Of a stretch of DNA of 64,000 nt, positions 22,176 to 55,019 are shown one piece after another. Every line of letters starts with the position of its first letter. The stretch's first letter is position 1. The notes beneath the pieces are model-generated. The model was not told where the DNA came from. It saw nothing but the letters and a program-made list of their open reading frames with translations, and searched no databases. The DNA is from Clostridia bacterium (GTDB lineage: Bacteria > Bacillota > Clostridia > UBA1212 > UBA1255), in NCBI GenBank assembly GCA_046952735.1, contig JBKUJR010000010.1:3099-67098 (forward strand), in the 5' to 3' direction. The translations under genes and the position numbers were made by a program.

Positions 22176-23022
22176 GAGATATGGTAATGTTAGCAATTCA
22201 AAGCCTTAGACCGGAGCCGTAGGCGGAGGGAGAAGGCTTTGAATTGCGGCGCGCTTATACCGACAGCTTTTCCCTCAGCAATTGAATCGGACTTTTTCCG
22301 CCGAGTGTACGCATGGTCTTATTATTACTCCACCGCAAATGTCCCTTGAGCTTTTCATTCAGTTCATCCACGTTTCTGAATTTCTCCCAGTCGTAGAAAT
22401 AACGCTGGTCATTCCTATGGCTGCGCTCGACCTTTCCGTTGTGCCAAGGTGTTCTCGGCGGAATCAGAATATGCGCTATACCGCATTTCTCAAGCAGCTT
22501 ATCCATCGGGCTTTTTTCTGTGTCGCTTATGAACTTGCAGGTAAACTCCGTTCCGTTATCGGTCTGTATTGTCTTGATTTTAAACGGAAATACTTTATTC
22601 TCCGGTGTATGCTCCTCAAACCCATATACAAAGCGAATCCGCGTACATTCATCTATGGCTGTCCACTGGTATAAACGCTTTCCGTCTCTGCGCAATTCTC
22701 CATGCAAACAGTCATATGGACTTCCTTTACGTCAATTTGAACCTTTTCGCCGGGAAAAAGCAGCTCCGGATAACGTTTCAGATTAGTGAGCGGCTGCTTT
22801 TTCTTTTTCGTTTCTGCTCCCAATCCGACCCTTTTGGCCGCATACACCATTCCGCTGAAACTGCGGCTATATCCGGCTTGTAAAACTTTTTCCTTTTCTT
22901 AATGAAAGTTTTTCTACCGCTTGCCGTTTCCTCGCTTCCTGTGTTATAATATTTATGGGAAGTTTCTCCTTGATATGGTTTTTGGTCTTATAATGATTCC
23001 ATTATACCATATCTTTCGAGAG
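22176..23022. mobile_element. internally deleted IS element remnant (rve/DDE transposase) with imperfect terminal inverted repeats
   Basis: A GC-rich block inserted in AT-rich DNA. Terminal repeats AAAGAGATATGGTAATG (about 22182) and the reverse-complement of CATTATACCATATCTTTC (about 23002) share the core AGATATGGTA. The body is only about 0.85 kb, so it is deleted. Confidence 0.45.
22255..22883 (-). pseudogene. DDE-type (rve integrase core) transposase, frameshifted
   Basis: QTDNGTEF...WHNGKVERSHR DDE core at 22255-22707. An upstream piece (EKVQIDVKEVH) lies in another frame at 22653-22850. Confidence 0.6.
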
Positions 23023-23397: not shown

Positions 23398-24261
23398 TTG
23401 GGCGATTTCGCAGTATTAGAAATGAGGCTTAAAATGTTTTATTCATTTTATAAAAATGCCGAATATAGTATGGAAGATGATTTGCGTTATCTAAAGCTAT
23501 ATTCCGATTATGATCATGCAGAAAACGGGCAAACACAAGATGTTAATTTCACATTTGATACCAAATCGCTAGAATTGATACAAATTAGAGACACTTGGAA
23601 TATTGATGACGTTATGGGGTTAGGTACGGAGCTTCAGAGAATTGTCAAATTGAAAAAATGGGCTTTCGAGTTATTATGTTTTAGTGGGAAAAAACTTGAA
23701 AGTAGGCATTACGAAACGCTTAATTGTTTTGAAACTATTCAATCAGCAATAAGTGAAGGTTATTCATTGAATTGTAGATATATCTCCCTTATTTTTACAC
23801 AAATATTATTAGCTGCAGGATTCAAAGCGAGATGGGTATCTTGTTTGCCTATGGAGTTAAATTACTGTGAGTGTCATTGTGTTTCCGAAGTATTTATTGA
23901 GGAATATAGAAAATGGATCGTTGTAGATGTTGCATTAAATGTTTTGTATTTTGATAAGAAAGGAAGTCTTCTTAATTTATATGATATAAGGCAGCATGTA
24001 CTAAAAAATGAGCCGTTTAGAATACAATCAACAACAAAAGAACATTTTCAATATGTTTGGGAATATTGGATAAGGCATGTTTTTAGATTTAAATTCCTTT
24101 TAAATAACAAATACAATATGTTGGCATCAAGCAATAAAACATTTGTATTTTTAAACCCAAAAGGGTTTGTTGTAAACGATAAAGAAATAATTCATTCAGA
24201 GAACGACACTACGAAATTTATACATTTTTATAATGATAAATTATTTTGGAAGGGGTCTTAG
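23398..24261 (+). CDS. transglutaminase-like superfamily enzyme (papain-like Cys-His-Asp), putative peptidase
   Basis: NCRYISLIFTQILLAAGFKARWVS matches the Transglut_core Cys motif (G.C..FA..F..L.R..GIPAR.V). CHCVSEVFIEEYRKWIVVDVA supplies the His and Asp. The true start is probably the ATG at 23422 or 23434; the track starts at a TTG at 23398. Confidence 0.7.
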   Translation: MGDFAVLEMRLKMFYSFYKNAEYSMEDDLRYLKLYSDYDHAENGQTQDVNFTFDTKSLELIQIRDTWNIDDVMGLGTELQRIVKLKKWAFELLCFSGKKLESRHYETLNCFETIQSAISEGYSLNCRYISLIFTQILLAAGFKARWVSCLPMELNYCECHCVSEVFIEEYRKWIVVDVALNVLYFDKKGSLLNLYDIRQHVLKNEPFRIQSTTKEHFQYVWEYWIRHVFRFKFLLNNKYNMLASSNKTFVFLNPKGFVVNDKEIIHSENDTTKFIHFYNDKLFWKGS

Positions 24262-24265
24262 TTAT

Positions 24266-25573
24266 ATGTTTAAACAATCTAAATTTAATTACACTTGTAA
24301 AAATGATGATGGCGAATTGCTTATATATAATACATATATTGGTGCCAAAAGCATGTGTAAAATCAGAGATTTATTATTACAAGATACGTTCTTAAATAAC
24401 ATTTCAATTGAAAATGAATCAGTTCTTTCAAGCTTGTTATCAAGAGGTGTTTTGGTAAATGACGATTTAGACGAGAATTTGAAGCTAAAAAATCTTATTC
24501 ACAAAATACTATCTCCTTCTGATTTAAAACTTGTTATTAGTCTTACTGAGCAATGTAATTTTTTATGTAAGTATTGTTATGAATCGCATAACAAAATAAA
24601 GCTCACTTCAGATGTAAAATACAATATAGTGAATTATATAAGGCATAACATACACAAATTTACAGATTTAAATATAACTTGGTTCGGCGGCGAGCCACTA
24701 CTTGCACTTGATGATATAATAGAAATGTCGCAAGAATTTATAAAAATATGTACTTTTAACAGAAGAAAATATACAGCTTCAATGACTACTAATGGCTATT
24801 TATTGGATGTAGAAATATTTAAAGAACTCTTGCGTAACAGAGTCTGGGCATATCAGATAACCCTTGACGGCACAAAAGAGCTTCATGACAAGCAACGTCC
24901 AACTGTAGGAGGCAAACCTACATTTGATACTATTGTAAAAAATCTTGAAGAAATTAAAAAGTTGAAAAATCGAGATTTTCACATTGTTATCCGTTCAAAT
25001 CTTACGAGCGATATATTTAATCATTTAGACGAATATATGGAATTTATCTCTTATCTTTGCGGCGATGATAACCGTTTCTCTTTATCAGTTTGTTATGCCA
25101 GCGAGTGGTCTGATAATATCGATAAAGATTTCAAGGATACGTTTATTAATAACCGTAACAACATTTTTCCATTATATGAAAAATTTCTAAAATGCAAAAG
25201 TCAAATTAATTTTGCTTTTTTATTAAATCCTGAAGATGGAGCATGTGAACTGGGACGTGATAATAGGTTTTTTGTTCGTCCCAACGGAGAATTACATAAG
25301 TGTTCTGTGGGATTTGAGAATAAAAAAAATATCATTGGCGTATTTTCCGGCAATCAAATTACGCTTAGTGATAACTATTATGAAAAAATAATAGATCCAA
25401 GTATGTGCAGCAATTTTGAAAGTTGTTTCTTTGCTCCTATATGCAAAGGCGAAGTCTGCCCTGCGGTGCGAAGTGAAAAAAATACTAGTTGCCCCGACTC
25501 GAAAAATCACCTAAGTTACATACTTCGTTTATTAGACAAATCGAATCAGATTGTCCGTATTGATGAAAAATAA
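24266..25573 (+). CDS. radical SAM/SPASM-domain peptide maturase
   Basis: CNFLCKYC is the CxxxCxxC radical SAM cluster motif. A C-terminal SPASM-like Cys cluster follows (CELGRD...HKCSVGF...MCSNFESCFFAPICKGEVC). RBS GGAAGGGG precedes the ATG at 24266. Confidence 0.85.
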   Translation: MFKQSKFNYTCKNDDGELLIYNTYIGAKSMCKIRDLLLQDTFLNNISIENESVLSSLLSRGVLVNDDLDENLKLKNLIHKILSPSDLKLVISLTEQCNFLCKYCYESHNKIKLTSDVKYNIVNYIRHNIHKFTDLNITWFGGEPLLALDDIIEMSQEFIKICTFNRRKYTASMTTNGYLLDVEIFKELLRNRVWAYQITLDGTKELHDKQRPTVGGKPTFDTIVKNLEEIKKLKNRDFHIVIRSNLTSDIFNHLDEYMEFISYLCGDDNRFSLSVCYASEWSDNIDKDFKDTFINNRNNIFPLYEKFLKCKSQINFAFLLNPEDGACELGRDNRFFVRPNGELHKCSVGFENKKNIIGVFSGNQITLSDNYYEKIIDPSMCSNFESCFFAPICKGEVCPAVRSEKNTSCPDSKNHLSYILRLLDKSNQIVRIDEK

Positions 25574-25586
25574 GGAGTTAAAAATT

Positions 25587-25841
25587 ATGGATAAATCATT
25601 GATAAGAAATAATATTATTCAAGCCTTAGCAAAAGTTTTTATCTTTGTTGACAGCGCCGAAAATGAAGATGTTGATTTGGAAACATATATTGATGATTCT
25701 ATACAATTTATGTCTTTCATAGTTGAATTAGAGCAAATTTTCAATATCGAGTTTCCACCTGAATTGTTATTGTTTGATAATTTCAAGACCATCAATAACA
25801 TATCCTTAATTATAGAGGAGATGTCAGCATTAGATGCCTAG
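25587..25841 (+). CDS. acyl/peptidyl carrier protein-like (PP-binding) small protein
   Basis: An 84-aa protein with an ACP helix-2 signature around a Ser (YIDDSIQFMSFIVELEQIFNIEF). Strong RBS AAGGAG 9 nt before the ATG at 25587. Confidence 0.6.
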   Translation: MDKSLIRNNIIQALAKVFIFVDSAENEDVDLETYIDDSIQFMSFIVELEQIFNIEFPPELLLFDNFKTINNISLIIEEMSALDA

Positions 25842-25903: not shown

Positions 25904-26035
25904 ATGACAAAAAAAGTCAAACTAAAAAAGCCGCAAGTCAAGAAAGACGATAAAATCTTGACTCTGTATAGCACGGAAACGAATGGCGTTGATTCATGCT
26001 GCCCAAGCGGTCAGAGTGGAAACTGCACCTGCTGA
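25904..26035 (+). CDS. candidate RiPP precursor peptide, 43 aa, Cys-rich C-terminus (not in the ORF track)
   Basis: RBS GGAGGA sits 7 nt before the ATG. Translation: MTKKVKLKKPQVKKDDKILTLYSTETNGVDSCCPSGQSGNCTC. It has a Lys-rich leader-like N-terminus and four Cys in the last 12 residues. It lies directly downstream of the rSAM/SPASM and carrier genes and is followed by a terminator. Confidence 0.55.
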   Translation: MTKKVKLKKPQVKKDDKILTLYSTETNGVDSCCPSGQSGNCTC

Positions 26036-26062: not shown

Positions 26063-26100
26063 CGCCTATATAGTAAAGTGCCTTACTATATAGGGCTTTT
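26063..26100 (+). terminator. intrinsic terminator/attenuator after the precursor peptide
   Basis: A roughly 15-bp stem GCCTATATAGTAAAG/CTTACTATATAGGGC followed by TTTT. Placement after the peptide is typical for high peptide-to-enzyme expression ratios. Confidence 0.5.
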
Positions 26101-26119
26101 GGTAGAAAGTAAGAAAGAA

Positions 26120-27901
26120 ATGAAAAAGTTAACCATATTTTCCGAATTACTACGATATGCATGGAAAAATCACAAATCACTTGTATTTGTGATTGTGTTT
26201 GAAAATATATTCTCCGCTACGCTTCCTCTAATAAACGTAGTTGGTATCGGCGTTATTATAGACGCTTTAACAAATGGACTCAGTAATAAAGCAGTGATGA
26301 ATATAATTTTAATGTTTACTGCATTGAATTTAGGCGTTTCATTGATAAAATATGTTTTAACATATTTGCATAATATAGCGGCACGAAAAGCGTCGGATAA
26401 AATTCAATATGATTATATGCGAGATGGGATTATCGTAAATTATCACTGGGCGCAGGACGGTTCTGTTCTTGATATGAAAAAGAAGTCAATGGGAGCTAAT
26501 CCCGTATTCGTATTTTCGCATATTGGAAACTTTATTGATTATATAGTAAAATTTGCCGGTATCCTATTTATTTTTTCAATGCTCAGTCCGCTGTTTATAA
26601 TTATGATTTCTGCTACATCGGCAATTTCAATCGTAATAACATTTAAAATACGGAAACTTGATTTTGAATTTGAAAATGAACGCACAGAAGATTCTCGCAA
26701 ACTCGATTATCTCTATAATCTTATGACACGGTATGAATACGCAAAAGAGGTCAGAATAAATAATTTAAAGCCTCTGATTATACACAAAAATGCTGGTATT
26801 ATCGCTACTCAATTAGTGAAACTTAAAAAATTTATGCGGTTAAAACTGCGTTTTGATAGTCTATCCGCTGTTGTTGCGGTAGTACAATCAGTTATTATGT
26901 ATTCGTATTTTTCTTATCGTGTTTATATCGGCAGCCTGACTATAGCTGATTACTCTGTTCTGCTGGGAGCTGTGGCGTTATTGACGTCTATTTTGATTGG
27001 TTTTTTTGATAATATTGCCGTTATAGACAGAATGACGGCTCGTATGGATATATTCCTTAAGTATAAAAAATGGGTACGTGAGAACAGCGATATTTTCGCT
27101 ACAAATGAAATACCTCAAAGCGTAATTGATGAAAAGCATAATCAAATAAATTTTGAAAATGTAAGCTTTATTTATCCAAATACCGATATTTCAATACTTC
27201 GTAATTTGAACTTTGTTTTGAAAGATGGGCAGAAAGTCGGAATTGTCGGATTGAACGGTTCCGGCAAGACAACGCTTGTTAAACTTCTTCTTCGCCTTTA
27301 TACGCCAACACAAGGGAAAATACTTCTTAACGGTATTGATATTAACACAATTCCCCTTGAACAATATTTAAAGCGGATTGGCGTGGTTTTGCAGGATTTC
27401 AACATTTTCGCATATTCAATTAAAGAAAATGTCGTTTTCGATAACAATGTTAGCGAAGATGTACTCAACAACGCTATTGAAAAAAGCGGCTTTGCGGGGA
27501 AAGTGGCAAGTTTAAAGGACGGCGTTGATACAATTCTATATAAAGAGCTTGATGAAAACGGGATAGAACTTTCCGGAGGTGAAGGGCAAAAATTAGCGCT
27601 CGCACGCGCACTCTGTAAAGATACCGGAATTTTAATCCTTGACGAACCGACTTCCACTCTTGATCCTATTGCCGAATACGAAATGTTTTCAAGTTTACAT
27701 GACATTTCAGAGGGAAAGACTACAATATTCATTTCCCATAGGCTTTCATCGACTAAATTCTGTGACCGTATTTTTGTGATTCAAGACGGAGTTATTGCTG
27801 AAGATGGTTCTCATAGCGAGTTGATGGCACAAGGCGGGTTATACGCCGATATGTTTGAATCTCAGGCAAAATTTTATAGAGAAAATGGTGTGCTATTATG
27901 A
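26120..27901 (+). CDS. ABC exporter, fused permease-ATPase (no C39 peptidase domain)
   Basis: An N-terminal six-TM domain followed by a nucleotide-binding domain with Walker A GLNGSGKTTL, signature LSGGEGQKLALARAL and Walker B ILILDEPTS. Confidence 0.85.
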   Translation: MKKLTIFSELLRYAWKNHKSLVFVIVFENIFSATLPLINVVGIGVIIDALTNGLSNKAVMNIILMFTALNLGVSLIKYVLTYLHNIAARKASDKIQYDYMRDGIIVNYHWAQDGSVLDMKKKSMGANPVFVFSHIGNFIDYIVKFAGILFIFSMLSPLFIIMISATSAISIVITFKIRKLDFEFENERTEDSRKLDYLYNLMTRYEYAKEVRINNLKPLIIHKNAGIIATQLVKLKKFMRLKLRFDSLSAVVAVVQSVIMYSYFSYRVYIGSLTIADYSVLLGAVALLTSILIGFFDNIAVIDRMTARMDIFLKYKKWVRENSDIFATNEIPQSVIDEKHNQINFENVSFIYPNTDISILRNLNFVLKDGQKVGIVGLNGSGKTTLVKLLLRLYTPTQGKILLNGIDINTIPLEQYLKRIGVVLQDFNIFAYSIKENVVFDNNVSEDVLNNAIEKSGFAGKVASLKDGVDTILYKELDENGIELSGGEGQKLALARALCKDTGILILDEPTSTLDPIAEYEMFSSLHDISEGKTTIFISHRLSSTKFCDRIFVIQDGVIAEDGSHSELMAQGGLYADMFESQAKFYRENGVLL

Positions 27902-29679
27902 AATTTATAAAGAACAAAATAATCGCTCCATTCGAGATCATCTCACTTATTTTCAAACATTCTCCCAGATATTTTGTGTTTTTCGTACCGCAAGTGATTT
28001 GCTCTTCTCTTTTGCCTTTGTTATATGTTTATGCGCCAAAATTAATTATTGAGGCCTTAACCGAAGGCAAGGATTATGATGGTATATTTAAAATCATAAT
28101 TCTTTTCTGCGGAACGGCGTTAATTTTAAATCTTATTATAGGTTATTTGAATAAGAAAATCAGTTACTGCGTGGAAAATTTCAGCAGAAAACTGTCCTCT
28201 GAAATAGGTCGAATCGTTATGAATCTCAGCCTTTCAGAAATTGAAAACACAACAGAGCGCGACAATATTCGCCTTGCGGGCAATGCTGCGGGAACAATAG
28301 AATTGTGTGAAGTCATTAGAAAATTAATACAAAATATTATAACGCTCATCGGATTCGTTGGGATTGTTTCTGAACTGGATATTAAATTTTTTGTAGTAGT
28401 TGCTATTTTGTTGATAGTGAAAATTATATTCACTTATATTAATTATAGAGCAAATCTCAAACTTCGTATACTGACTGCGCAAAACGACAGAACAGGCAAT
28501 TATCTTACCAATCTTTGTTATTTCAATCAAGGTGCTGCTAAGGAGATACGGGTAAACAGCATTCAATTATGGTTTCTTCAAAAAGTAAAAAAATTCAGAC
28601 AGAGGATGGTAAGATTACAGTATAAAGAGTTCCGCCGAAACTTATTTTTTGATAGTATTAACGCCATTTTGTTTGCGGCTTCTTCATTTTACATTCTTTG
28701 GAGTTTATCAACATATTACCTTGACAACGCTATTTCAATCGCTGATTTTACCCTTTATTTCACAACCATCACAGCATTGAGCGCTGCATTGGGAACAATT
28801 ACAGACCTTATAGCGCAATACAATAAACAGCTTAAAAATGCAGCTGATTTTGGGAAACTTAAAACATTATCAGAACAAAACGAAAAACATCCGTCATCAG
28901 ATATTGCACCTTTTGAAGAGTCGTCAAATATAGAAATTTGTTTTTCTGATGTATGGTTTGCTTATCCGGGCAGTAAAGATTTTGTACTTAGGGGAATTGA
29001 TATAAAAATTACTAACCGCGAAAAGCTGGTTATTGTCGGATATAACGGTGCGGGGAAAAGTACGTTTATAAAACTTCTCTGCAAATTTTATCGCCCTACA
29101 AGGGGAGCAATAACCTTAAATGGTATAGATATTTGGGAGATACCAAACGAACAATATAACAGAATAATTGGCGCGGTTTTTCAAGATTTTGTTACGTTCG
29201 CATTTACAATATCCGAAAATATATCAATGAGCGAAAATAATGACGATTTGTCCGGAGTTTTATTAAAAGCAGGACTTTTAGATTTTGTAATCAATTTGCC
29301 TGACGGCGAACAAACATACATTTCAAAAAAGTTTTCATCTGAGGGCATAGAGCTTTCAGGTGGACAAGGGCAAAAAATAGCTCTTGCCCGCGCGATGTAC
29401 AAAAATGCTCCTGTATTAATTCTCGACGAACCGACAGCAAGTCTTGATTTAAAGGCTGAGAGTGAATTGTATGAAAATTTCATGAAAACTGCTTTTGATA
29501 AAACCGCATTATTTATCTCTCACCGTTTGGCGGCTTCCCAGATAGCAGATTGTATCGCGGTTTTATCGGATGGGAAAATAGCTGAATGCGGAACACATAA
29601 AGAGCTTATAGAAAAAAACGGATTGTATGCCGAAATGTTTGAAAAACAGAGTAAACCATATATCCAAGATAAAGTATAA
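27898..29679 (+). CDS. ABC exporter, fused permease-ATPase (second half of a probable heterodimer)
   Basis: ATGA start/stop overlap with the upstream ABC gene. Walker A GYNGAGKSTF, signature LSGGQGQKIALARAM, Walker B LILDEPTASLD. Confidence 0.85.
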   Translation: MKFIKNKIIAPFEIISLIFKHSPRYFVFFVPQVICSSLLPLLYVYAPKLIIEALTEGKDYDGIFKIIILFCGTALILNLIIGYLNKKISYCVENFSRKLSSEIGRIVMNLSLSEIENTTERDNIRLAGNAAGTIELCEVIRKLIQNIITLIGFVGIVSELDIKFFVVVAILLIVKIIFTYINYRANLKLRILTAQNDRTGNYLTNLCYFNQGAAKEIRVNSIQLWFLQKVKKFRQRMVRLQYKEFRRNLFFDSINAILFAASSFYILWSLSTYYLDNAISIADFTLYFTTITALSAALGTITDLIAQYNKQLKNAADFGKLKTLSEQNEKHPSSDIAPFEESSNIEICFSDVWFAYPGSKDFVLRGIDIKITNREKLVIVGYNGAGKSTFIKLLCKFYRPTRGAITLNGIDIWEIPNEQYNRIIGAVFQDFVTFAFTISENISMSENNDDLSGVLLKAGLLDFVINLPDGEQTYISKKFSSEGIELSGGQGQKIALARAMYKNAPVLILDEPTASLDLKAESELYENFMKTAFDKTALFISHRLAASQIADCIAVLSDGKIAECGTHKELIEKNGLYAEMFEKQSKPYIQDKV

Positions 29680-29711
29680 TATATTTTTAATTGAAAACGA
29701 GGGGTTGGATT

Positions 29712-31490
29712 ATGAAGAAAATAAAAATAGCGATACTTGACAGCGGAGTAAGGAAAGATCACCCTGCTTTTTCAACTAAAACGATAAACGGTTTTTCTCT
29801 TCGTTTAATAGATGAATCTGTAGAACAATATGCAGAATTTATTGATAACGTAGGACACGGAACGGCAATCTTTTACCTTATAGATAAATTTATTGATAAT
29901 GTAGAAATCACAAATATAAAGATATATGATACTAATTCTGAATTAACACAATATAATTTTGAAATGCTGTTAGATTTTATTTGTAAAAATTATGATTTCG
30001 ATATAATCAACATAAGTATGGGATTTTTAAGCTGCGGCAGTGTCGCTAACTTACAAAAAATATGCGATGATTTTTACGCAAGAAGAACATTAATTATATC
30101 CGCTTTTGATAACAACGGCGCAGTTTCTTTTCCTGCCGCACTAAATAATGTAATAGGAGTTGACGGACAAGAAAATATTGATTCGTTAAATGGTTATATA
30201 CATGTGGAAAACAGTATTGTAAATATAATCGGAAAGCTCAAAAACATGAGAGTAGCCTGGTTGGCGCCTGATTATATAATTGTAAAAGGCAACAGTTTTC
30301 TTTGTGCAAATATTACTGCCAATGTGGCAAAATGTTTACAAGAGCAAGGGGTTGTGGATTGGCAAAAAATATGCACTGACAAATATTTGTTTCCAAAAAC
30401 TTTAGACAATCATATTCCGTTTAATATACGCAAAGCAGCGGTATTCCCTTTTAATAAAGAATTACATGCGATTGCGAGATTTGAGGAATTATTGAATTTT
30501 GATATAATAGATTATTATTCAATAAGAATAACGGGATACATTGGTAAAAAAATATCTGATGTTTTACCTGATTGCAGCAACGATAAGGTTATTAAGAATA
30601 TTGATGATATTGAATGGAATGAGTTTGATACTTTGATACTGGGTCATACCGGTGAATTATCGAGGTTAACTAAAAGTGATTATAGAACCACTCTTTTAAA
30701 TAATGCCATTGAAAAGGGTAAAAACATATATTGCTTTGATAATCCTATGCCAATTATAAACAATCCCAAATATACGGATGTATATTTTCCTAAAATTGAT
30801 AGTACAAACATTAAAAAAAGATTTGGCAAATTATATAAAACAGATAAACCGATTATAGCTGTAATTGGAACTAATTCTCGTCAAGGTAAATTTTCGCTTC
30901 AGTTGTGTCTTAGAAAAAAATTAATAGAGTTCGGATATAGTGTAGGACAAATAGGAACTGAACCTTCTGCACTGTTATTCGGATTTGATGAAATATTTCA
31001 TTGCGGATATAACGGACAAGTTGATTTGGATATCTCTCAAACATATATAGCTGTTAATGATATGATTTGGAATATAACTCAAAAAGATGTTGACCTGATA
31101 ATTGCCGGAACTCAGAGTGGATTTCTTCCCTATAATGATTACAACGCCATGATGTTTCCGACATATCATCAAATATTCTTTTCTGCTTTACAGACTGATG
31201 CAATTATTGTATGCATAAATCCATTTGACGATATACAGTTTGTGAACAGAACTATAAAAGCGGCAGAAGGTCTTTCGGGCGGAAAGGTGATTGGAATCGT
31301 ATGCTTTCCTATTGATGTTTGTGACAGTTGGCAAGGTAACTTTGGAATGAAAGCTCGCATAAGCGAAGAAAGAGAAAATGAAATCAAGCATAAATATTGT
31401 TCGCATGAAGATATAAAAGTATATATGCTTGATAAATCTGACGAACTTGATGAATTATTATCCAAATGTATTGAATATTTCCAGCAATGA
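29712..31490 (+). CDS. subtilisin-like (S8) serine protease domain fused to a roughly 370-aa C-terminal P-loop-like domain of unknown function
   Basis: N-terminal Asp (IAILDSGV), His (DNVGHGTAI) and Ser (GNSFLCANITANVA, compare GTSMAAPHVAG) in subtilase order. The C-terminal region contains PIIAVIGTNSRQGKFSLQLCL. RBS GAGGGG precedes the ATG at 29712. Confidence 0.6.
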   Translation: MKKIKIAILDSGVRKDHPAFSTKTINGFSLRLIDESVEQYAEFIDNVGHGTAIFYLIDKFIDNVEITNIKIYDTNSELTQYNFEMLLDFICKNYDFDIINISMGFLSCGSVANLQKICDDFYARRTLIISAFDNNGAVSFPAALNNVIGVDGQENIDSLNGYIHVENSIVNIIGKLKNMRVAWLAPDYIIVKGNSFLCANITANVAKCLQEQGVVDWQKICTDKYLFPKTLDNHIPFNIRKAAVFPFNKELHAIARFEELLNFDIIDYYSIRITGYIGKKISDVLPDCSNDKVIKNIDDIEWNEFDTLILGHTGELSRLTKSDYRTTLLNNAIEKGKNIYCFDNPMPIINNPKYTDVYFPKIDSTNIKKRFGKLYKTDKPIIAVIGTNSRQGKFSLQLCLRKKLIEFGYSVGQIGTEPSALLFGFDEIFHCGYNGQVDLDISQTYIAVNDMIWNITQKDVDLIIAGTQSGFLPYNDYNAMMFPTYHQIFFSALQTDAIIVCINPFDDIQFVNRTIKAAEGLSGGKVIGIVCFPIDVCDSWQGNFGMKARISEERENEIKHKYCSHEDIKVYMLDKSDELDELLSKCIEYFQQ

Positions 31491-32428
31491 TGGAGAGATT
31501 TATGTATATAGATATTGCGTCAACAAAATATGATACATACGATTGTTACCAGAACAATATAATTGCTATTTTAGGTAATTATTTTAAAATTGATTATCGA
31601 CCGTTTTTTTGGAGCGGTTTTGATTTTCGTTTTTCAATTGATCAAAAGAAAAATTATATAAATATAACAGGATATAATGCATACCAAGAACAGATACTTT
31701 TAGAGCAATGCGGAGTGAAAATTAATTGTATAAACAAGACTTGTATTCAAAGATTCAAACAAATCATCTTAAAAGAGTTAAACGATTCTAGACCTATTGG
31801 ATTACGCCTAAACGGTTCTGATTTGTCATGGAATAATGATAATAAAAATATAGATTATCATTACTTGCTTATTATTGGTATTGATGTTTCTGCTTCTCTC
31901 ATATACTGTTGTGATAGTTTTCTTTCCGATAAAATTCAAACAATTGATATTTCTTATTTATATGAAAAAGTAGAATATATATTGATTTACTCTATATCAG
32001 AGAAAGGTCAAATATCATTTAATATGTCGAGAGCTAATTTTTTAAGATGCTTGGATTATAACAGTAAAAATAAGAATTCTGATTTGTATCATTTTATAAA
32101 TAATACTTCAATATTATTTGAGAATCTTAAAGGTACTAATCCAAATAATAATTCGGTAATATTTCAATTATCCCGTGTTTGTTGGAGCAGATATAATTTC
32201 ATGAAATCATTGGAATATTTTCACGATATATACGGCAACGAAATACTCGATAATATAAAAAAGTGTTTTAATGTTATAATCGACACATGGACAAAATTGA
32301 AAAATATATTTATAAGGGCTACTCTTATTAATAATGCGCAGCAACTTAATAAATATAGTGAATATTTTATTAAGCTAATAATTGAAACTGAATCTGTGAT
32401 ACAAAATTATTTAGAAGCGCAAAACTAA
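31487..32428 (+). CDS. hypothetical protein, possibly BtrH_N/peptidase-C39-like (Cys...His) transferase or peptidase
   Basis: A 313-aa protein with an N-terminal Cys (DTYDCYQNN) and a downstream His in a beta-strand context (DYHYLLIIGIDVS), as in the papain-like BtrH/C39 fold. Its start overlaps the upstream stop. This is a family assignment from memory only. Confidence 0.35.
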   Translation: MMERFMYIDIASTKYDTYDCYQNNIIAILGNYFKIDYRPFFWSGFDFRFSIDQKKNYINITGYNAYQEQILLEQCGVKINCINKTCIQRFKQIILKELNDSRPIGLRLNGSDLSWNNDNKNIDYHYLLIIGIDVSASLIYCCDSFLSDKIQTIDISYLYEKVEYILIYSISEKGQISFNMSRANFLRCLDYNSKNKNSDLYHFINNTSILFENLKGTNPNNNSVIFQLSRVCWSRYNFMKSLEYFHDIYGNEILDNIKKCFNVIIDTWTKLKNIFIRATLINNAQQLNKYSEYFIKLIIETESVIQNYLEAQN

Positions 32429-32443
32429 AATAGGAGGATTCAA

Positions 32444-32689
32444 ATGGAGGAAAAAGTAATAAATATAATATGTCAAGCAATAACACTGGAAAGTGATATT
32501 TTGATTACAGTTGACACACTACTTTCTGACTTGCCGTTTGATTCTATAAAATTTATTAAAATGGTGGTAGCTTTAGAAAGTGAATTTGATTTTGAATTTG
32601 AGGATGAAAAATTGCTCTTTACACAATTTCAAACGGTGAAGTCGTTAATTGAATATGTTGATTTGAAAGTTAATTCACTGAATAAATAA
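32444..32689 (+). CDS. second acyl/peptidyl carrier protein-like small protein
   Basis: An 81-aa protein with LSDLPFDSIKFIKMVVALESEFDFEF, an ACP-like Ser motif. RBS AGGAGG. Confidence 0.55.
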   Translation: MEEKVINIICQAITLESDILITVDTLLSDLPFDSIKFIKMVVALESEFDFEFEDEKLLFTQFQTVKSLIEYVDLKVNSLNK

Positions 32690-32904: not shown

Positions 32905-33980
32905 ATTTGTCTTGACACGGGGAGACGAGGGTATTACGGGAACATGTCTTGCCAAGCGTGATGAGTTTAACCGTATGATACGTGACAGCAAGGAAGGGAA
33001 GATTGACCGTATCTATGTAAAAAGCGTTTCCCGTTTTGCAAGAAATGCTTTAGATTGCCTTGATAGTATCTGTATTCTGAAAGAGTACGGCGTGTCGGTG
33101 TTCTTTGAAAATGACGCTATTGATACGCAGACACTCAATTCCGAACTTGTGCTGTATATTAAAAGTGCATTTGCCCAGGCTGAATCAATGACAGGTCCAA
33201 AAGGGTGAAGACGAGCAACAGGATGCGTGCGGAAAGCGGTCACTATACCTTTACAGCACCGCCATTCGGTTACAGAATGGAAAACAACACGCTGATTCCC
33301 GTGCAGGAAGAGGCGGAGATTGTTATTCGTATCTATAAGGAATACCTTTGCGGTATGGGCGTGAGCAAGATTGTATCGGGATTGAACTCTGATCCGGATG
33401 TTCCGGGCAAGCCGTGGAGGAAAGAGGGCGTTCGGTATATCCTTGCTAATGAGAAGTACATCGGAGACAGTCTCTTTCAAAAAAGCTTCACGCCAAATGA
33501 ACTGCCTTTCAGAAATCGTGTAAATCGTGGTGAGGTGGAAAAGTACGATATCTCGGGTACCCATGAGGTAATTATGGATAGGAAACTTCATTCTGCCGTA
33601 CAGGAGATGCTGCGTCGTAATGTCGAAAAGCAGGCGAAAAAAGCAAGACCTCGTAAATTTAACTTCAGCAACAAAATATTCTGCGCATCCTGTGGATGGA
33701 CATATAAGCAATGAACGGGATTTTGTCGCAGGAAGCGCTGAATTTCCAGCCCGCAAAAAAAGCACTCTTTGATCTCCTGAATGCGCAGTTTGACTGCTGT
33801 GAGCCGGATCGCTCCGGCGTAGTAGAGTATATAAATGACTGTAAATCAATCGACGCAGTCGATGTGTCGCTTTTCAAGGTAATTCTTTCGGAAATTCAAA
33901 TCGATGCAAACGGAACGGTCGCTCTGCGCTTTGCAAATAACGCCGTCATTTCGTTGGAAGGGAGCGAGGAGCATGAATAA
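32905..33980 (+). pseudogene. large serine recombinase, N-terminally truncated and frameshifted (three frames)
   Basis: DEGITGTCLAKRDEFNRMIRD...VKSVSRFARN is the resolvase domain, lacking the catalytic-Ser N-terminus. The recombinase domain at 33205-33714 ends in a CxxC zinc-ribbon start (CASCGWTYKQ). A C-terminal tail lies in a third frame at 33711-33980. Confidence 0.6.
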
Positions 33981-34771
33981 CAGCAATCAGACAACGCAAA
34001 AGATCGTGACGAAAATCGCCGCCAATCCTGCACTGTCCAAAAAGTTCGATCCGAACCGTCCCTCAAAATAGCGGCATACTGCCGTGTATCCACTGATGAT
34101 GAGGATCAGTTTAACAGCTACAGAACGCAGAAAGCATACTACACCGATTACATCAAAAAGAACCCCAAATGGCGTTTCACCGGAATTTATGCTGACGAGG
34201 GTATTACAGGAACTTTGGTAAAAAAACGCGACGATTTTCTTCGCATGATAGCGGATTGCGAAAAAGGAAAGATCGACCTTATTCTGATTAAATCGGTTTC
34301 CCGATACGCAAGAAACATCGTGGATTGCATTTCGTATATACGCAAGCTCAAGGCACTGGGGATCGGAATCTACTTCGAGGAGCAGAATATCAGCTTACTG
34401 AGGACAGCGAGGTATATATCGGTATCTACGGCGTTATGGCACAGTCGGAAAGTGAGAATATTAGTGCTAATGTTAAGTGGGGAATCAATAAGCGGATGCA
34501 GAACGGTACATATGCCTGCCGCTTTAATTTGCTTGGATACCGCAGAGATAAGGAAACTAAGGAAATTAGGATTATACCCGAGGAAGCAGAGATTGTAAAA
34601 AAGATATTCCGTATGTATCTGCAGGGTTCGAGTTTGGATCAAATCAAGGCGTATTTGGAAGAGAACGGCGTTAGGACAGTGAGGGGAAATCTAAAATGGG
34701 ATAAGCACGGCATCCGATCTATGCTGACAAATGAGAAGTATGCGGGGGATATATATCCACTTTTTTTATAA
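33975..34771 (+). pseudogene. second large serine recombinase, frameshifted and 3'-truncated
   Basis: ATG at 33975 with an RBS. A 1-nt frameshift precedes KIAAYCRVSTDDEDQ (catalytic Ser motif). GIYADEGITGTLVKKRDDFLRMIAD and the recombinase domain follow with another frameshift near 34380. About 70% nucleotide identity to the upstream copy. Confidence 0.6.
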
Positions 34772-35164: not shown

Positions 35165-36358
35165 TCAACGGAATCCGATTTTATGCGTCTCCGGCCACGG
35201 GCAGCTTTTCCATTGCCCGCCGTCCTCCTCCAGATCTCCTGTTAATAGATCCGTTGCCGCATTCGTAATGTATCCGAGATAACTTTCTGCATCGGGAGCA
35301 CCGTTTAAAATTTTCCAGAAAATACCGCCAAATTGATAGGAACGTGCGAATTCCCGCCAGCTGCGCATTCCGAGACATACTTTCTGCGACAGGTCCCACA
35401 GAATGCCGATTGCTTCGCCCTCTGTAATCCAGCCGAGATAATATCCCCAGCGTGTCAGCATAGCCGCCCGTCCGATGTCCCAGCCGAGCAGAAAATCAGG
35501 CAAATACCGTTCCTTGTAATATTGCGCAAACCGCCACCCGCGGCTGACGGAGGCGATCTCTTCTTCCTCTATCTCTTCGCCGCATAATTCCTCCGGGGAA
35601 GCCGCTTCGCAATATTGCTGATACCGAAAGACATAGCCCTCCTGCGTCAGATACCGAAGCGTTTCCATAAGTTCTGCGCGCCCGTTGATCCCCCAGCTGC
35701 GGCGTACGAGCGAAACGATTCTCTGTTCCAGAATCGGGATATGCTCTTCCACATCCAGCCCGTCGAGCTCATGTTCATTCACTTTGGAAACGATCCCTGA
35801 AAGCAGGATCCCGAAACGCCCCCATTGCTTGGAATCCTTCGGATAGTAGACAGGCTCCGGCTCCGGCAGCGAATCTATCTGTTCCATACTGTTTTCCAGT
35901 ATATGATAAAGCTTCTGCTCAAATGCCAAATCGAACGATTCTGCATCTTCCTCTAAATCCGTTTCCGCCTGTTCGTTTTCCAACGCAAGCGTTTCCAGAG
36001 CCGCAGACAGGATTCCCATATCTTCGCCAAATAGTTTTTCCATCATGCCGTCTGCGCTCATAGAGGCATATTCGGAGACCTGCTCCGCTACCATATTCTG
36101 GATCTGTGCTTCTGAAGAAGCCATCTGCGCCAATGTTTCCTCGTCAAAAAGCTGACCCAAAATTTCTACCTGCCGCCGGCTGCTTTCGGATGCCTGTTCC
36201 GCCGCCTTCTTGGCATCTTCGTTCTGCTTCTTTTCTAGTTCCGTTTCTTCCGATGCCTGCCGTGCAATTTCTGCGCTTTTCTGTATGGATTTTTCCAAAT
36301 CGGCAGAGGCTCTGTTACTGGCCTCCTGCGCTCTGCGGAAAATTTCGTCGATATCCAT
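35165..36358 (-). CDS. DUF1266-domain protein with an N-terminal coiled-coil/acidic region
   Basis: The C-terminal W-rich segment (WDIGRAAMLTRWGYYLGWITEGEAIGILWDL) resembles DUF1266. Confidence 0.55.
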   Translation of the reverse strand: MDIDEIFRRAQEASNRASADLEKSIQKSAEIARQASEETELEKKQNEDAKKAAEQASESSRRQVEILGQLFDEETLAQMASSEAQIQNMVAEQVSEYASMSADGMMEKLFGEDMGILSAALETLALENEQAETDLEEDAESFDLAFEQKLYHILENSMEQIDSLPEPEPVYYPKDSKQWGRFGILLSGIVSKVNEHELDGLDVEEHIPILEQRIVSLVRRSWGINGRAELMETLRYLTQEGYVFRYQQYCEAASPEELCGEEIEEEEIASVSRGWRFAQYYKERYLPDFLLGWDIGRAAMLTRWGYYLGWITEGEAIGILWDLSQKVCLGMRSWREFARSYQFGGIFWKILNGAPDAESYLGYITNAATDLLTGDLEEDGGQWKSCPWPETHKIGFR

Positions 36359-50058: not shown

Positions 50059-51351
50059 ATGATCTGGAATCCGGGCAGGGAATGCCTCACAAGAAAAGAA
50101 TATGACGCCATGAAGCTGGAGCGGCTGAAATGGACGGTCAGCCGCGCGTATGAAAAAGTTCCGTTTTATCGCAGAAGGTTCGATGAAATCGGCCTGAAGC
50201 CGGAACACATCCAGACGCTGAAGGATATCGAAAAGATCCCGTATACAACGAAGCTGGATCTGCGGGACAACTATCCGTTTCAACTGTTTGCGGAGCCGAT
50301 GGGCAAGATCGTACGCCTGCACGCCAGTTCGGGCACGACGGGAAAGCCCGTCGTATTCGGGTATACGAAACACGACATGGAGGTCTGGAAAGAGAATATT
50401 TCACGGATCGCCGCAATGGCGGGGGTAACGGCAGAAGACGTAGCGCAGATCGTATTCGGATTCGGCATGTTTACGGGCGGTTTCGGGCTATATCAGGGCC
50501 TTGAAAATATGGGCGCCACGGTCGTCCCTTCTTCCTCCGGCAATTCGGAACGGCAGCTGATGTTCATTGAAGATTTCGGAGTCACCGTGATCGTTGGCAC
50601 GCCTTCTTACGTTTTGCATCTTGGCGAGCTTGCGGCCGAACGCGGACTGCAGCATAAACTGCGGGTCGGCATGTTCGGCGGAGAAGGCCATACGGCTGAA
50701 ATGCGAAAGCAAATCGAAAAAATGTGGGGGATCGAATGCACGGAGAATTACGGACTGACGGAGGTGCAGGGGCCCGGCGTATCGGGAGAATGCCTCGAAC
50801 ATAACGGCATGCATTTTAACGAAGACAGTTTCCTGTATGAAATCATCGACAGCGAAACCCTGGAAGTAAAATCCCCAGAAGAAGAAGGAGAACTCGTACT
50901 GACGACGCTGACCAAAGAAGGCGTGCCTGTTTTACGCTACAGAACGAAGGATATTACTTCTATCGATTTCGCGCCTTGCAAATGCGGCAGAACTTCGGCA
51001 AGGATGAGTAAAGTAAAAGGCCGTTCCGACGATATGCTGATCATCAAAGGAGTCAACGTTTTCCCCAGCCAGATCGAGAGCCTGCTGCTTGGGATGCCCC
51101 ATATCGGACCGCATTATGAAATCGTCGTAACAAAGAAAGGATACATAGATCAGCTTGAAGTCAAAGTGGAGCTGGCGGATTCTTCATTACTGGAAAGCTA
51201 CGGCGAACTGGAAGCGCTGACGGCGAAAATACGGGAAAAAGTAAAATCGAACTTGCTGCTCGACGCAAAAATTACGCTTGCCGAGCCAAAGTCTCTGGAA
51301 CGTTACGTAAACGGCAAGGCGAAACGCGTACATGATTTAAGAAATCAATAA
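50059..51351 (+). CDS. paaK: phenylacetate-CoA ligase family (PaaK-like) adenylate-forming enzyme
   Basis: SSGTTGKPVVFGYT AMP-binding motif. The 430-aa PaaK-type architecture. Adjacent to iorAB. Confidence 0.8.
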   Translation: MIWNPGRECLTRKEYDAMKLERLKWTVSRAYEKVPFYRRRFDEIGLKPEHIQTLKDIEKIPYTTKLDLRDNYPFQLFAEPMGKIVRLHASSGTTGKPVVFGYTKHDMEVWKENISRIAAMAGVTAEDVAQIVFGFGMFTGGFGLYQGLENMGATVVPSSSGNSERQLMFIEDFGVTVIVGTPSYVLHLGELAAERGLQHKLRVGMFGGEGHTAEMRKQIEKMWGIECTENYGLTEVQGPGVSGECLEHNGMHFNEDSFLYEIIDSETLEVKSPEEEGELVLTTLTKEGVPVLRYRTKDITSIDFAPCKCGRTSARMSKVKGRSDDMLIIKGVNVFPSQIESLLLGMPHIGPHYEIVVTKKGYIDQLEVKVELADSSLLESYGELEALTAKIREKVKSNLLLDAKITLAEPKSLERYVNGKAKRVHDLRNQ

Positions 51352-51381
51352 ATAAAGATCAAAATAACGGGAGGTTTTTAA

Positions 51382-53130
51382 ATGAAAAAGCTGCTTTTGG
51401 GAAACGAAGCCGTGGCGCGCGGGGCATGGGAAGCCGGCGTCAATGTCGTTTCCTCCTATCCGGGCACGCCCAGTACGGAAATTACGGAGAGCACTGCGAA
51501 ATACGATGAAATATTCTGCGAGTGGGCGCCGAATGAAAAGGTGTCTATGGAAGTCGCAATCGGAGCATCTGTAGCCGGCGCACGGTCGATGTGCTGTATG
51601 AAGCATGTGGGTTTAAATGTCGCGGCAGATCCGCTGTTTACGGCAGCGTATACCGGCGTCAACGCGGGAATGGTGATCGTTGTGGCGGACGATCCGGGTA
51701 TGCACAGCTCCCAAAATGAACAGGACTCCCGGTTTTACGCATTATCCGCGCATATACCGATGCTCGAACCTTCAGACAGCGAAGAATGCAGAGAATATAC
51801 AAAACGGGCGTTCGAGATCAGCGAGGCGTACGATACGCCGGTGATCCTCAGGCTGACCACGCGGATTGCGCATGCGCGCAGCCTGACTACGATGGGAGAC
51901 CGCACGGAGCATCCGAAGCTCCCGTATCGGAAAGATGTCATGAAATACGTTATGATGCCGGGTATGGCAAAGAAGCGCCATTTCGCCGTAGATGCCAGAA
52001 TGGATAAGCTGCGCGCTTTTTCCGAAGAAGGCGCAGACGGGCTGAATACAGTAGAATATAAAGATACTTCGCTTGGCATTATTACATCCGGTATCAGCTA
52101 TCAATATACAAGGGAAGTATTTCCGGAAGCGTCGGTTCTGAAGCTCGGCATGGTATATCCGTTGCCCGACAAACTGATCGAAGAATTTGCCGGAAAGGTA
52201 GACCGGCTGCTTGTTATCGAAGAATTGGAACCCTTCATCGAGAATCATATTTTACAACTGGGGATCCGCAAGGTCGAAGGAAAAAAATATTTTACCAATC
52301 AGGGAGAACTGAATACAACCCTGATCCGGAAAGCTTTTACAGGAGAAACGCTTCCTACGGCGGAAGCTGCCGAAAAGGTAGAGACGCCTGCAAGGCCGCC
52401 GGTGCTTTGTCCCGGCTGTCCGCACAGGGGCGTATTCTATGTTCTGTCTAATATGAACGTGCGTGTCTCCGGAGATATCGGCTGTTACACGCTCGGCGCA
52501 ATGAAACCGTATGAAGCGGTGGATACATGCGTCTGCATGGGAGCCTCCGTAAGTATGGCGCACGGCATGGATAAAGCGGATGCGCAGTTCGGCGACAAAA
52601 TACCTACCGTTGCGGTGATCGGAGATTCCACCTTTATGCATTCCGGCGTTACGGGCCTGATCGATATCGTTTATAATAAAGGCGCGGCAACGGTCATCAT
52701 ACTCGATAATTCCATTACGGGAATGACGGGCCATCAGCAGAATCCTACTACGGGCCTTACGATCAAAGGCGAACCGGCTCCGGCGGTCGATCTCGTAAAG
52801 CTTGCGGAAGCGGTCGGCGTAAAACGGATCCGCGTGGAGGACCCGTTCGATATGAAAAAATTCAAAGCCGCCGTAAAGGAAGAAATAGAGGCCGACGAAC
52901 CCTCGGTCATCATTGCGCAGAGACCGTGCGCGCTATTGAAATCTGTAAAATACGGCGCTCCTGTTCGGATCGATGCGGAAAAATGCAGAAAATGCGGCGC
53001 ATGTATGCGTTTGGGCTGTCCGGCTATTTTCACGGAAGACGGCGCGTACCTGATTGATAGATCCATCTGTCTGGGCTGCCGGCTCTGTGAACAGATGTGC
53101 GCGTTCGGTGCGATCGGAAAGGAAGAGTGA
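51382..53130 (+). CDS. iorA: indolepyruvate ferredoxin oxidoreductase subunit alpha
   Basis: TPP-binding GDIGCYTLG and GDSTFMHSG motifs. Two C-terminal 4Fe-4S ferredoxin motifs (CRKCGACMRLGCP; CLGCRLCEQMC). Confidence 0.85.
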   Translation: MKKLLLGNEAVARGAWEAGVNVVSSYPGTPSTEITESTAKYDEIFCEWAPNEKVSMEVAIGASVAGARSMCCMKHVGLNVAADPLFTAAYTGVNAGMVIVVADDPGMHSSQNEQDSRFYALSAHIPMLEPSDSEECREYTKRAFEISEAYDTPVILRLTTRIAHARSLTTMGDRTEHPKLPYRKDVMKYVMMPGMAKKRHFAVDARMDKLRAFSEEGADGLNTVEYKDTSLGIITSGISYQYTREVFPEASVLKLGMVYPLPDKLIEEFAGKVDRLLVIEELEPFIENHILQLGIRKVEGKKYFTNQGELNTTLIRKAFTGETLPTAEAAEKVETPARPPVLCPGCPHRGVFYVLSNMNVRVSGDIGCYTLGAMKPYEAVDTCVCMGASVSMAHGMDKADAQFGDKIPTVAVIGDSTFMHSGVTGLIDIVYNKGAATVIILDNSITGMTGHQQNPTTGLTIKGEPAPAVDLVKLAEAVGVKRIRVEDPFDMKKFKAAVKEEIEADEPSVIIAQRPCALLKSVKYGAPVRIDAEKCRKCGACMRLGCPAIFTEDGAYLIDRSICLGCRLCEQMCAFGAIGKEE

Positions 53131-53133
53131 AGC

Positions 53134-53718
53134 ATGAAAAACCTTGACAATTTAAATGTTTTAATCGTGGGCGTCGGCGGACAGGGCACGCTGCTTGCTT
53201 CGAAATTTTTAGGAGCAGCGGCGGCTCTGTGCGGAAAGGACGTCAAAGTTTCCGAAGTACACGGTATGTCGCAGCGAGGCGGCAGCGTCGTAACGTGCGT
53301 GAAAATCGGAGAGCAGATTGCTTCCCCTATTATCGATGAGGGCGAGGCGGACGTTATTCTTGCTTTCGAACGGCTGGAAGCAGTGAGATGGCTCCCGTTC
53401 TTGAAAAAAGGCGGAACCGTTATCGCAAATATCCAGAAAATCAATCCCATGCCGGTCGTATCCGGCGCGGCGAAATACCCGGATCATATCCTGGAAATTT
53501 TAGAAAAATCGGAAATAGAGACGATTTTGCTGGATGCTCTTGGAATTGCGGAAGAATGCGGAAGCGCAAAAGCCGTCAACGTGGTGCTGCTGGGAGTGCT
53601 CGCTTCAAAATTGACGGAAATTCCGGAGAATGTCTGGATGGAAAGCCTGAAGAGCGTAATTCCTGCAAAATTGTACGATATCAATGAAAAGGCATTTCGG
53701 AAAGGACGGGGCTTATGA
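53134..53718 (+). CDS. iorB: indolepyruvate ferredoxin oxidoreductase subunit beta
   Basis: A 194-aa protein with N-terminal VGVGGQGTL, a pyruvate/ketoisovalerate oxidoreductase gamma-like fold. Adjacent to iorA. Confidence 0.8.
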
Positions 53719-55019
53719 AATACTGGAACGAACATTTTGAATGTATGCCGCGCGAGGAACTGCGGGACCTCCAATCCCGCCGGCTGCAAAAATTGGTAGA
53801 CAGAGTGTACAATCATGTTCCTCACTACCGTGATAAAATGATTGCCGCAGGCGTCGAGCCCGGCGATATCCGTACGGTAGACGATATCGGAAAGCTCCCT
53901 TTTACAACAAAGCAGGATTTACGCGACACGTATCCTTTCGGAATGTTCGCCGTCCCGATGTCCGATATCAACAGGATCCATGCATCTTCGGGTACGACAG
54001 GCAAGCAGACCGTAGTAGGCTATACGGCGCGCGACCTCGATATCTGGGCGGAATGTATGGCCAGAAGCTTGACGGGAGCAGGTGCGGACCGAAGCTCCGT
54101 CGTCCATGTGGCTTATGGCTACGGACTGTTTACCGGGGGCCTCGGCGCACACTATGGCGCGGAAAAAATCGGCTGCGCGGTAATCCCGGTATCCTCCGGC
54201 AATACGGCGCGGCAGATTACGATTCTGAAGGATTTCAAACCGGATTATATTTGCTGTACGCCTTCTTATGCGCTTTATCTTGCCGAAGAGCTGTATGCGT
54301 CCGGCGGAAGTCCGGCGGATATCAACCTGAAGGCCGGCTTGTTCGGGGCCGAACCCTGGACGGAAGAAATGCGCGCAGAGCTTGAAGCGAAGCTCGGAAT
54401 CAAAGCGCTGGATATTTACGGTCTCAGTGAGATTATGGGGCCGTCCGTCAGCTGCGAATGCCTGGAGCAGTGCGGTATGCACGTCCAGGAAGACCATTTT
54501 CTGATTGAAATCATCGATCCGGGCACGGGTATGCCTGTCAAAGACGGAGAACAGGGAGAAGTCGTATTTACGACGCTTACGAAAGAAGGCTTCCCGCTGA
54601 TCCGGTATAGGACGCGCGATCTTTCCTATATTATGACGGAGCCGTGCGCCTGCGGACGGACCACAGCCCGGATGCATAAGCTTTGCGGCAGAACGGACGA
54701 TATGCTGATCGTCCGCGGGGTAAATGTATTCCCGTCTCAGATCGAAAGCGTGCTGCTTGAAATGGGAGAAACGGCGCCGCATTATATGATCGTTGTAGAC
54801 AGAGAAGGAAATCATGATACGATGGACGTACAAGTAGAAATGACGGAAGCCTTTTTCTCGGATTCCGTTAAAAATATCGAAAGTTTGGAAGGAAAAATCA
54901 AAGCCCGGCTGGCCAGCGTGCTCGGAATCAGCGTCGGCGTACGTCTGGTGGAGCCGAAAACGATCGCGCGCAGCGAAGGCAAAGCAAAACGCGTGGAGGA
55001 CAGGCGTAAGCTGCACTGA
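53715..55019 (+). CDS. paaK: second phenylacetate-CoA ligase family paralog
   Basis: [14 protein letters not shown] motif. Paralogous to the gene at 50059. Confidence 0.8.

Follow-up and report, generated by a model that had tools for sequence, protein, structure and literature searches.

The papain-like ligase CtaG of the closthioamide pathway uses a Cys11/His128/Asp144 triad to take up a carrier-bound acyl group as an acyl-enzyme and to pass it to a second carrier-bound substrate (PMC12865890). BtrH, AsbE and MllDE have been placed in the same fold class, and structure-based mining for CtaG lists non-ribosomal pathways only (PMC12865890); CcbD, according to PDB entry titles, has been crystallised with a peptidyl carrier protein (PCP) domain. 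Here we analyse a stretch of 64,000 nucleotides from a Clostridia bacterium (contig JBKUJR010000010.1, positions 3,099 to 67,098; hereafter the window), in which a 313-amino acid (aa) protein predicted to belong to this class (31487..32428, + strand) is followed by a gene for a carrier protein, ACP2 (32444..32689, +). This region makes up the tailoring end of a mobile gene cluster, a 9.3-kb island, for a ribosomally synthesized peptide with post-translational modifications (RiPP) matured by a radical SAM (rSAM) enzyme. Set against CtaG (PDB 9QUZ/9QVJ), BtrH (butirosin), AsbE (petrobactin) and CcbD/LmbD (lincosamides), the 313-aa protein has its Cys-His-Asp triad at equivalent positions in sequence and likewise has an adjacent carrier gene, and the island, like the CtaG cluster, encodes two different carriers. 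However, sequence identity is only 8-13%, and the setting is an rSAM-RiPP cluster rather than a nonribosomal peptide synthetase (NRPS)-independent, siderophore or aminoglycoside pathway. The cluster also differs in having no adenylating or ATP-grasp loader, and its probable acceptor is a ribosomal peptide.

The remainder of the island resembles a Cys-rich peptide system that Haft described in silico and that is known by annotation only, comprising the rSAM enzyme CcpM (TIGR04068), TIGR04066, the acyl carrier protein (ACP)-related TIGR04069, a subtilase and an ABC exporter (PMC4573289, PMC10731318). The parts list is the same in the window (rSAM enzyme, ACP-related protein, TIGR04066-like domain, subtilase and ABC exporter, plus a Cys-rich precursor), and all three models are matched weakly. 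The scores nevertheless lie far under the curated cut-offs (93.9 versus 500 for TIGR04068, 97.1 versus 200 for TIGR04066, and 17.5 versus 70 for TIGR04069), so the window proteins are not members of these equivalogs. The TIGR04066-like domain is, moreover, fused to the subtilase in the window, and the cluster adds a transglutaminase-like protein, the CtaG/BtrH-like enzyme and a second carrier. The core of which ACP1 is a part is a sister of the TIGR04066/68/69 system, within the broad family which those models sample.

With ranthipeptide and QhpD-type systems (PapB, QhpD/QhpE) the cluster shares an rSAM/SPASM protein that has PapB, Clo7bot and CefB among its best matches, a QhpE-like subtilase domain and a Cys-rich core in which Asp, Asn, Thr and Ser occur, although by score the enzymes do not belong to these families (for PapB-type maturases, 118.2 bits versus the NF047865 cut-off of 340). 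The characterised PapB work reportedly used a precursor and an rSAM enzyme only. Lipolanthines, goadvionins and selidamides are acylated RiPP hybrids, in which an acyl group, in some cases carrier-bound, is placed on an amine of a ribosomal peptide by systems that use GNAT-type acyltransferases together with polyketide synthase (PKS) or fatty acid synthase (FAS) machinery. In contrast, the candidate transferase of the window is papain-like, and PKS, FAS and adenylation genes are absent. Each part is of a known kind. In the literature searched, however, we found no counterpart to the combination, an rSAM-RiPP cluster that has a core carrier with an invariant Ser, lacks an adenylating enzyme and houses a CtaG/BtrH-type ligase together with a carrier of its own.

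A preliminary description of the window, made from the sequence, had guessed a BtrH- or C39-like fold for the 313-aa protein on the strength of the motifs YDCYQNN and DYHYLLIIGID. Both are present and carry Cys20 and His125, respectively; homologs begin at the ATG giving MYIDI (31502). A word-indexed search of 5.8 billion clustered proteins returned only six close homologs (58-90% identity), among which Cys20 and His125 are invariant, and an exhaustive profile search added 297 more distant relatives, of which 68 full-length sequences were used for alignment. Conservation across these 68 is at least 90% at Cys20, His125, Cys141 and Asp143 and complete at Trp115, Arg235, Trp268 and Glu302, and the Cys20/His125/Asp143 triad is kept in all members of the clade. 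BtrH_N is matched by 55 of the 68 (E<=0.01) and Peptidase_C39_2 by 36. A locus search with alignment A1 found no relative encoded in GTDB species genomes, and a PDB search with the BtrH-like profile gave one marginal match, ComA C39. The same profile also matches domains of large multidomain proteins (P0144, 3980 aa, residues 3462-3768; P0105, 1677 aa; P0065, 1141 aa) as well as proteins of a recurrent ~525-aa class (~515-550 aa, e.g. P0043, P0050 and P0055) that have an extra C-terminal region.

Structure prediction, suggested at that early stage as a check, returned a papain-like fold with the Cys-His pair and not an unrelated one. The AlphaFold2 model from the 68-sequence alignment (predicted local distance difference test, pLDDT, 94.7; predicted template modelling score, pTM, 0.91) supersedes one from 7 close homologs alone, which was unusable (pLDDT 42.9). 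It consists of an N-terminal papain-like alpha/beta domain and a C-terminal domain of five to six helices; Cys20 starts a helix, His125 starts a strand and Asp143 lies just past the next strand, which is the papain topology. Given this confident model, the CtaG/BtrH fold class and the CcbD structure, the BtrH/C39 guess was correct and can be refined: as modelled, the protein is a two-domain papain-like enzyme with the fold of the CtaG/BtrH/CcbD-type carrier-dependent ligases, and presumably a carrier-protein-dependent transacylase.

The genes around its relatives link this enzyme to carriers. Within the ligase clade (E<1e-80), a carrier gene is adjacent or near in every locus with searchable flanks (the window and loci L001, L002, L004, L005/6, L007 and L008/9), and one is also near the ligase gene in L093; L003 stops with the ligase gene, and only short fragments represent L094 and L095. 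A carrier of the ACP2 subtype adjoins the ligase gene in L001, L002, L004 and L007 and lies near it in L005. The nearest outgroup ligases, which are 26-32% identical to that of the window, occur in two kinds of gene context: one with carrier(s) and adenylating enzymes, the standard thiotemplate arrangement (L005/6, L008/9, L093, L094 and L095), and one with an S8::DUF1611 protein and a carrier but no adenylating enzyme (L004 and L007), as in the window clade.

The presence of adenylating enzymes in the nearest outgroups and their absence from the window clade could mean that the BtrH-like/ACP2 pair is a non-functional passenger: the thiotemplated pathway from which it derives would have lost its adenylating enzyme during assembly of the island, and broken transposase and recombinase genes do flank the island. 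We regard such a remnant as highly improbable, however. The open reading frames (ORFs) are intact, the ratio of nonsynonymous to synonymous substitution rates (dN/dS) for the 313-aa gene is 0.16-0.24 across copies that are 64-90% identical and come from independent contigs, and L004 and L007, at 28-32% identity, still show the arrangement that lacks an adenylating enzyme.

Ligase relatives also lie amid genes for B12-binding radical SAM enzymes, extra SPASM proteins, a glycosyltransferase and electron transfer flavoprotein (ETF) in L005 (3750-7836 and 12355-13903) and L007 (8356-9972). Since these neighbourhoods differ, the ligase and carrier pair occurs in several peptide-modifying contexts.

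Both small proteins of the island had been described as carriers, and this identification stands. ACP1 (25587..25841, +), which bears IDDSIQFMSF, reaches 28.8 bits on Pfam PP-binding, and ACP2, which bears PFDSIKFIKM, reaches 40.1 bits (gathering score 20.8); ACP1 also gives the weak TIGR04069 match noted above, and ACP2 matches AcpP-type NCBIfam models below cut-off. The accompanying statement that they are not PqqD-like RiPP recognition element (RRE) proteins agrees with our scans, in which no PqqD/RRE family was matched at E<=0.1. Among carrier-like proteins from all related loci, the attachment Ser is present in 83 of 83, preceded by Asp in 76 and followed by Ile or Leu in 67. This Asp-Ser pattern fits a real phosphopantetheine site, at which the carriers are presumably modified; no phosphopantetheinyl transferase (PPTase) was found in the ORFs scanned at 10.9-22 kb, 35-39 kb and 43.8-55 kb of the window. 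In an alignment of 13 carriers from related loci two subtypes separate, that of ACP1 (...DSIQFMSFVVELEQIFNIEFPPELL) and that of ACP2 (...DSIKFIKMVVALESEFDFEFEDEKL), and dN/dS is 0.08 for ACP1 and 0.16 for ACP2.

A papain-like fold could also belong to a C39-like leader peptidase or an immunity-type protease, with the carriers acting as non-catalytic binding partners or chaperones of the rSAM enzyme, and the ABC exporters of the island do lack a C39 domain of their own. Such a role is distinctly unlikely in our view: an invariant Ser in all 83 carriers would make little sense if these were not phosphopantetheinylated, the genes tie the enzyme closely to a carrier and, among the outgroups, also to adenylating enzymes, and two other protease candidates are present, namely the S8 domain and the transglutaminase-like protein.

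The preliminary description was right that the island has two carrier proteins, but these do not form a pair. Homologs of the protease's DUF1611-type domain number at least 593, and relatives of it are encoded in 204 GTDB species genomes, from which 80 loci were scanned with local hidden Markov models (HMMs); these loci were chosen for the DUF1611 domain, hence co-occurrence with it is one-directional. A related rSAM enzyme is encoded in 66 of the 80 species loci and a carrier in 65, directly after the rSAM gene in 59. Any BtrH-like match, by comparison, occurs in 13 loci and one at E<=1e-10 in three; matches with E>1e-10, which are partial alignments in which the N-terminal Cys is not checkable, were not counted as ligases. 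An AMP-binding enzyme is present in three of the loci and two carriers in one. ACP1, the rSAM enzyme and the S8::DUF1611 protein thus belong together in a widespread core, and the BtrH-like protein and ACP2, which travel together, are a rare accessory add-on. The accessory status of the pair also follows from L010, in which the protease is 69% identical to that of the window, the core peptide is near-identical (NGVDFCCPSGQSGNCTC; Ser/Phe at one position) and the core machinery is complete, but both the BtrH-like gene and ACP2 are missing. In L010 two ~330-aa proteins with no Pfam match (11452-13429) stand in place of the pair, and they may be an alternative tailoring module.

These distributions bear on whether the enzyme might work between two carriers, as CtaG does, joining a cargo on ACP2 (the donor) to an amine-bearing cargo on ACP1 (the acceptor) to give a small non-ribosomal unit that is later put on the peptide or forms a separate product. 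CtaG, which is the best structural match, does use two distinct carriers (PMC12865890), and the two carriers of the island are of clearly different subtypes. But ACP1 is found in 65 of the 80 species loci, only 13 of those with any BtrH-like match, and therefore has a role independent of the BtrH-like enzyme. L004 and L007, though both are incomplete contigs, show only an ACP2-type carrier beside the enzyme, and Pfam and NCBIfam scans of the island gave no enzyme that would build an amine-bearing cargo on ACP1. Ligation between two carriers is, for these reasons, an unlikely account of the enzyme.

How the carriers might be charged is the question on which the preliminary description was only partly right. 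It had stated that no loading enzyme is present and, in so far as Pfam and NCBIfam scans of the eight island proteins gave no AMP-binding, ATP-grasp or acyltransferase domain, this holds, but it had overlooked a conserved DUF1611 P-loop domain fused to the protease. This 599-aa fusion (29691..31490, +) joins an S8 subtilase domain (Peptidase_S8, 31.6 bits; QhpE, 84 bits) to the TIGR04066-like DUF1611 domain (26 bits, gathering score 25). The S8 triad, Asp17/His56/Ser202, is conserved in 106-107 of 107 homologs, and the domain is presumed to be the leader peptidase. The DUF1611 Pfam match recurs in 11 of 11 homologs, and the P-loop, GTNSRQGKF in the window protein, follows a pattern, GT(S/N)SxQGK, that is invariant. 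A single-sequence PDB search with the C-terminal domain gave no match, and its profile aligns on the P-loop to a structural-genomics protein, PDB 2g0t (E 4e-4); the 358-aa C-terminal query is 100% identical to P0156, 'MAG: S8 family serine peptidase [Clostridia bacterium]'. DUF1611 is the sole unexplained conserved nucleotide-binding candidate, and the carriers could be loaded either in trans by host enzymes or through this P-loop domain.

In a further scheme, the peptide would itself supply a carboxylate (its C-terminus, for example), which the P-loop domain would activate with ATP and load on a carrier, and from there the BtrH-like enzyme would release it by amidation or cyclisation. The invariance of the P-loop fits this scheme, as does the fact that DUF1611 is the constant partner of ACP1 while an adenylating enzyme is absent in 77 of the 80 loci, and many precursors of the family end in Cys or Cys-x-Cys. 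Nevertheless, we consider loading of the peptide on a carrier very unlikely: the scheme is pure conjecture, the loci were picked by DUF1611, which makes the co-occurrence one-directional, and we know of no ligase activity for DUF1611. DgcN, the one DUF1611 member known to have an assigned function, is an acetyl-CoA-dependent N-acetyltransferase and not a ligase. In the literature dgcN is a gene of the D-glutamate pathway. DgcN as a precedent hints that the domain may bind CoA or pantetheine, but is no test of such a role.

An AMP-binding ORF 17 kb downstream of the island (50059-51351) was rejected as a dedicated loader, being a housekeeping PaaK-type ligase beside an indolepyruvate oxidoreductase in core genome of 50% GC. 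Two PaaK-type phenylacetate-CoA ligases here flank the alpha and beta subunits of an indolepyruvate:ferredoxin oxidoreductase (50059-55019, +), and these genes serve the housekeeping fermentation of aromatic amino acids and have no relation to the island.

The most likely function of the 313-aa enzyme, by analogy with the ligases described above, is to move a carrier-bound acyl group to the processed peptide, and it is one that we hold with confidence and doubt in about equal measure. In this model, the rSAM enzyme would cross-link the Cys-rich core, and the S8 domain, or the transglutaminase-like protein, would cut off the leader. The 313-aa enzyme would then pick up the acyl or aminoacyl group that ACP2, its dedicated carrier, bears on the phosphopantetheine arm, hold it on Cys20 (activated by His125 and Asp143) as the thioester intermediate of a ping-pong reaction, and hand it to an amine. 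The likeliest acceptor would be the new N-terminus of the core peptide exposed by leader removal, since the predicted core contains no Lys. The ABC pair would export the product. Acyl transfer to the peptide is favoured by what the analysis shows, namely the fold, the conserved triad, the identity of the carriers with their invariant Ser, the conserved linkage of the genes, purifying selection on them and the fact that the pair is accessory, and a protease with a conserved triad is at hand to expose the amine; phosphopantetheinylation of the carriers, the cargo, the acceptor and the loading route are inferred.

Several observations weigh against acyl transfer to the peptide. Taken alone, the 313-aa protein reaches 15.9 bits on BtrH_N (PF14399), below the gathering score of 29.7, and no enzyme able to load ACP2 was recognised in the island or scanned flanks. 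AziU3 matches the structure just as well and yet, according to the literature, has a function unrelated to acyl transfer (PMC12865890), so the fold alone does not fix the chemistry. In addition, the literature searched holds no characterised product of any cluster of this family. The more far-reaching proposal, that a papain-like CtaG/BtrH-type ligase acts here for the first time on a ribosomal peptide and that the core carriers with their invariant Ser are charged through the DUF1611 P-loop instead of an adenylating enzyme, is rather unlikely.

Carrier-like proteins in rSAM peptide clusters have so far been flagged in silico only (TIGR04069), and functional tests are absent from the literature searched. 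Our analysis adds that carriers from dozens of species all keep the attachment Ser and that an adenylating enzyme is almost always absent, and that a subset of these clusters has recruited a CtaG/BtrH-type ligase, an enzyme class with a mechanism solved only recently. If the ligase does decorate the peptide, it would represent a new link between ribosomal and thiotemplated peptide chemistry, provide a compact enzyme and carrier pair for capping peptide N-termini, and offer a handle on the roles of the core carrier and of the DUF1611/TIGR04066 domain. Should loading by DUF1611 and ligation both prove true, the clusters would form a RiPP/thiotemplate hybrid family in which one protein couples removal of the leader to carrier-dependent capping. 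Pairs of clusters that have the same core peptide, with and without the ligase module, allow a direct comparison.

The peptide itself is encoded by a gene that the preliminary description missed, along with the DUF1611 domain, although the ORFs that it did place in the island were confirmed; the ORF listing had a minimum of 50 aa, so the 43-aa precursor fell below it. This Cys-rich peptide (25904..26035, +; MTKKVKLKKPQVKKDDKILTLYSTETNGVDSCCPSGQSGNCTC), read from the sequence, has a strong ribosome-binding site, AGGAGG, upstream, and orthologous precursors are found at the same position in L001, L003, L010 and L014. Precursors across the family share a leader motif, K-K-L-x-K-P...L-Y-x-x-E (also written KKxKLxKP...LYxxE), and Cys-rich cores. 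The rSAM/SPASM maturase (24233..25573, +) has the cluster motif CNFLCKYC and reaches 65 bits on Pfam Radical_SAM; its best NCBIfam matches, TIGR04463, Clo7bot, CefB, PapB and CcpM (TIGR04068), are all far below cut-offs, and its nearest families are the maturases of Cys-rich peptides and ranthipeptides. The core probably makes and exports a cross-linked Cys-rich peptide of the thioether (ranthipeptide) type.

Export would fall to two ABC subunits, the first (26078..27901, +), a permease/ATPase, having ABC_tran at 110.9 bits and MsbA and bacteriocin-exporter-like NCBIfam matches, and the second (27898..29679, +) having ABC_tran at 101 bits. The true start of the first is probably the ATG giving MKKLTIFSELL, the L001 orthologue beginning MKKLTIF. 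The first gene of the island (23398..24261, +) encodes the transglutaminase-like protein of the papain superfamily, which may act as a cysteine protease or a transamidase (29.5 bits on Pfam Transglut_core against a gathering score of 23) and which is also found in L001, L003, L010 and L011 and, by phmmer, in 15 of the 80 species loci. By eye, its Cys (NCRYISLIF), His (CHCVSEVF) and Asp (VVDV) are kept; if so, a transglutaminase-like, an S8 and a CtaG-like fold give the cluster three folds of nucleophile-type hydrolases or transferases.

All genes of the island are on the + strand, and their order recurs in independent metagenome contigs. The island corresponds to a low-GC block at ~23.4-32.7 kb of the window (31-35% GC versus ~50% in the flanks), and GC is below the genome level across about 14-35 kb. 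A transposase fragment (22255-22707, -), several out-of-frame serine-recombinase fragments (32912-34771, +) and a partial integrase (17228-17947, -) flank this block, and the island therefore looks like cargo of a decayed mobile element. Directly after the recombinase fragments lies a gene for a DUF1266-domain protein with an acidic, coiled-coil-like N-terminal half (35165-36358, -). Agr-type quorum-sensing genes (AgrB, a LytTR response regulator and a HATPase_c_5 kinase) adjoin related clusters in L011 (13328-15353), L012 (4127-7019) and L093 (3239-6606), which suggests that these clusters are under density-dependent control.

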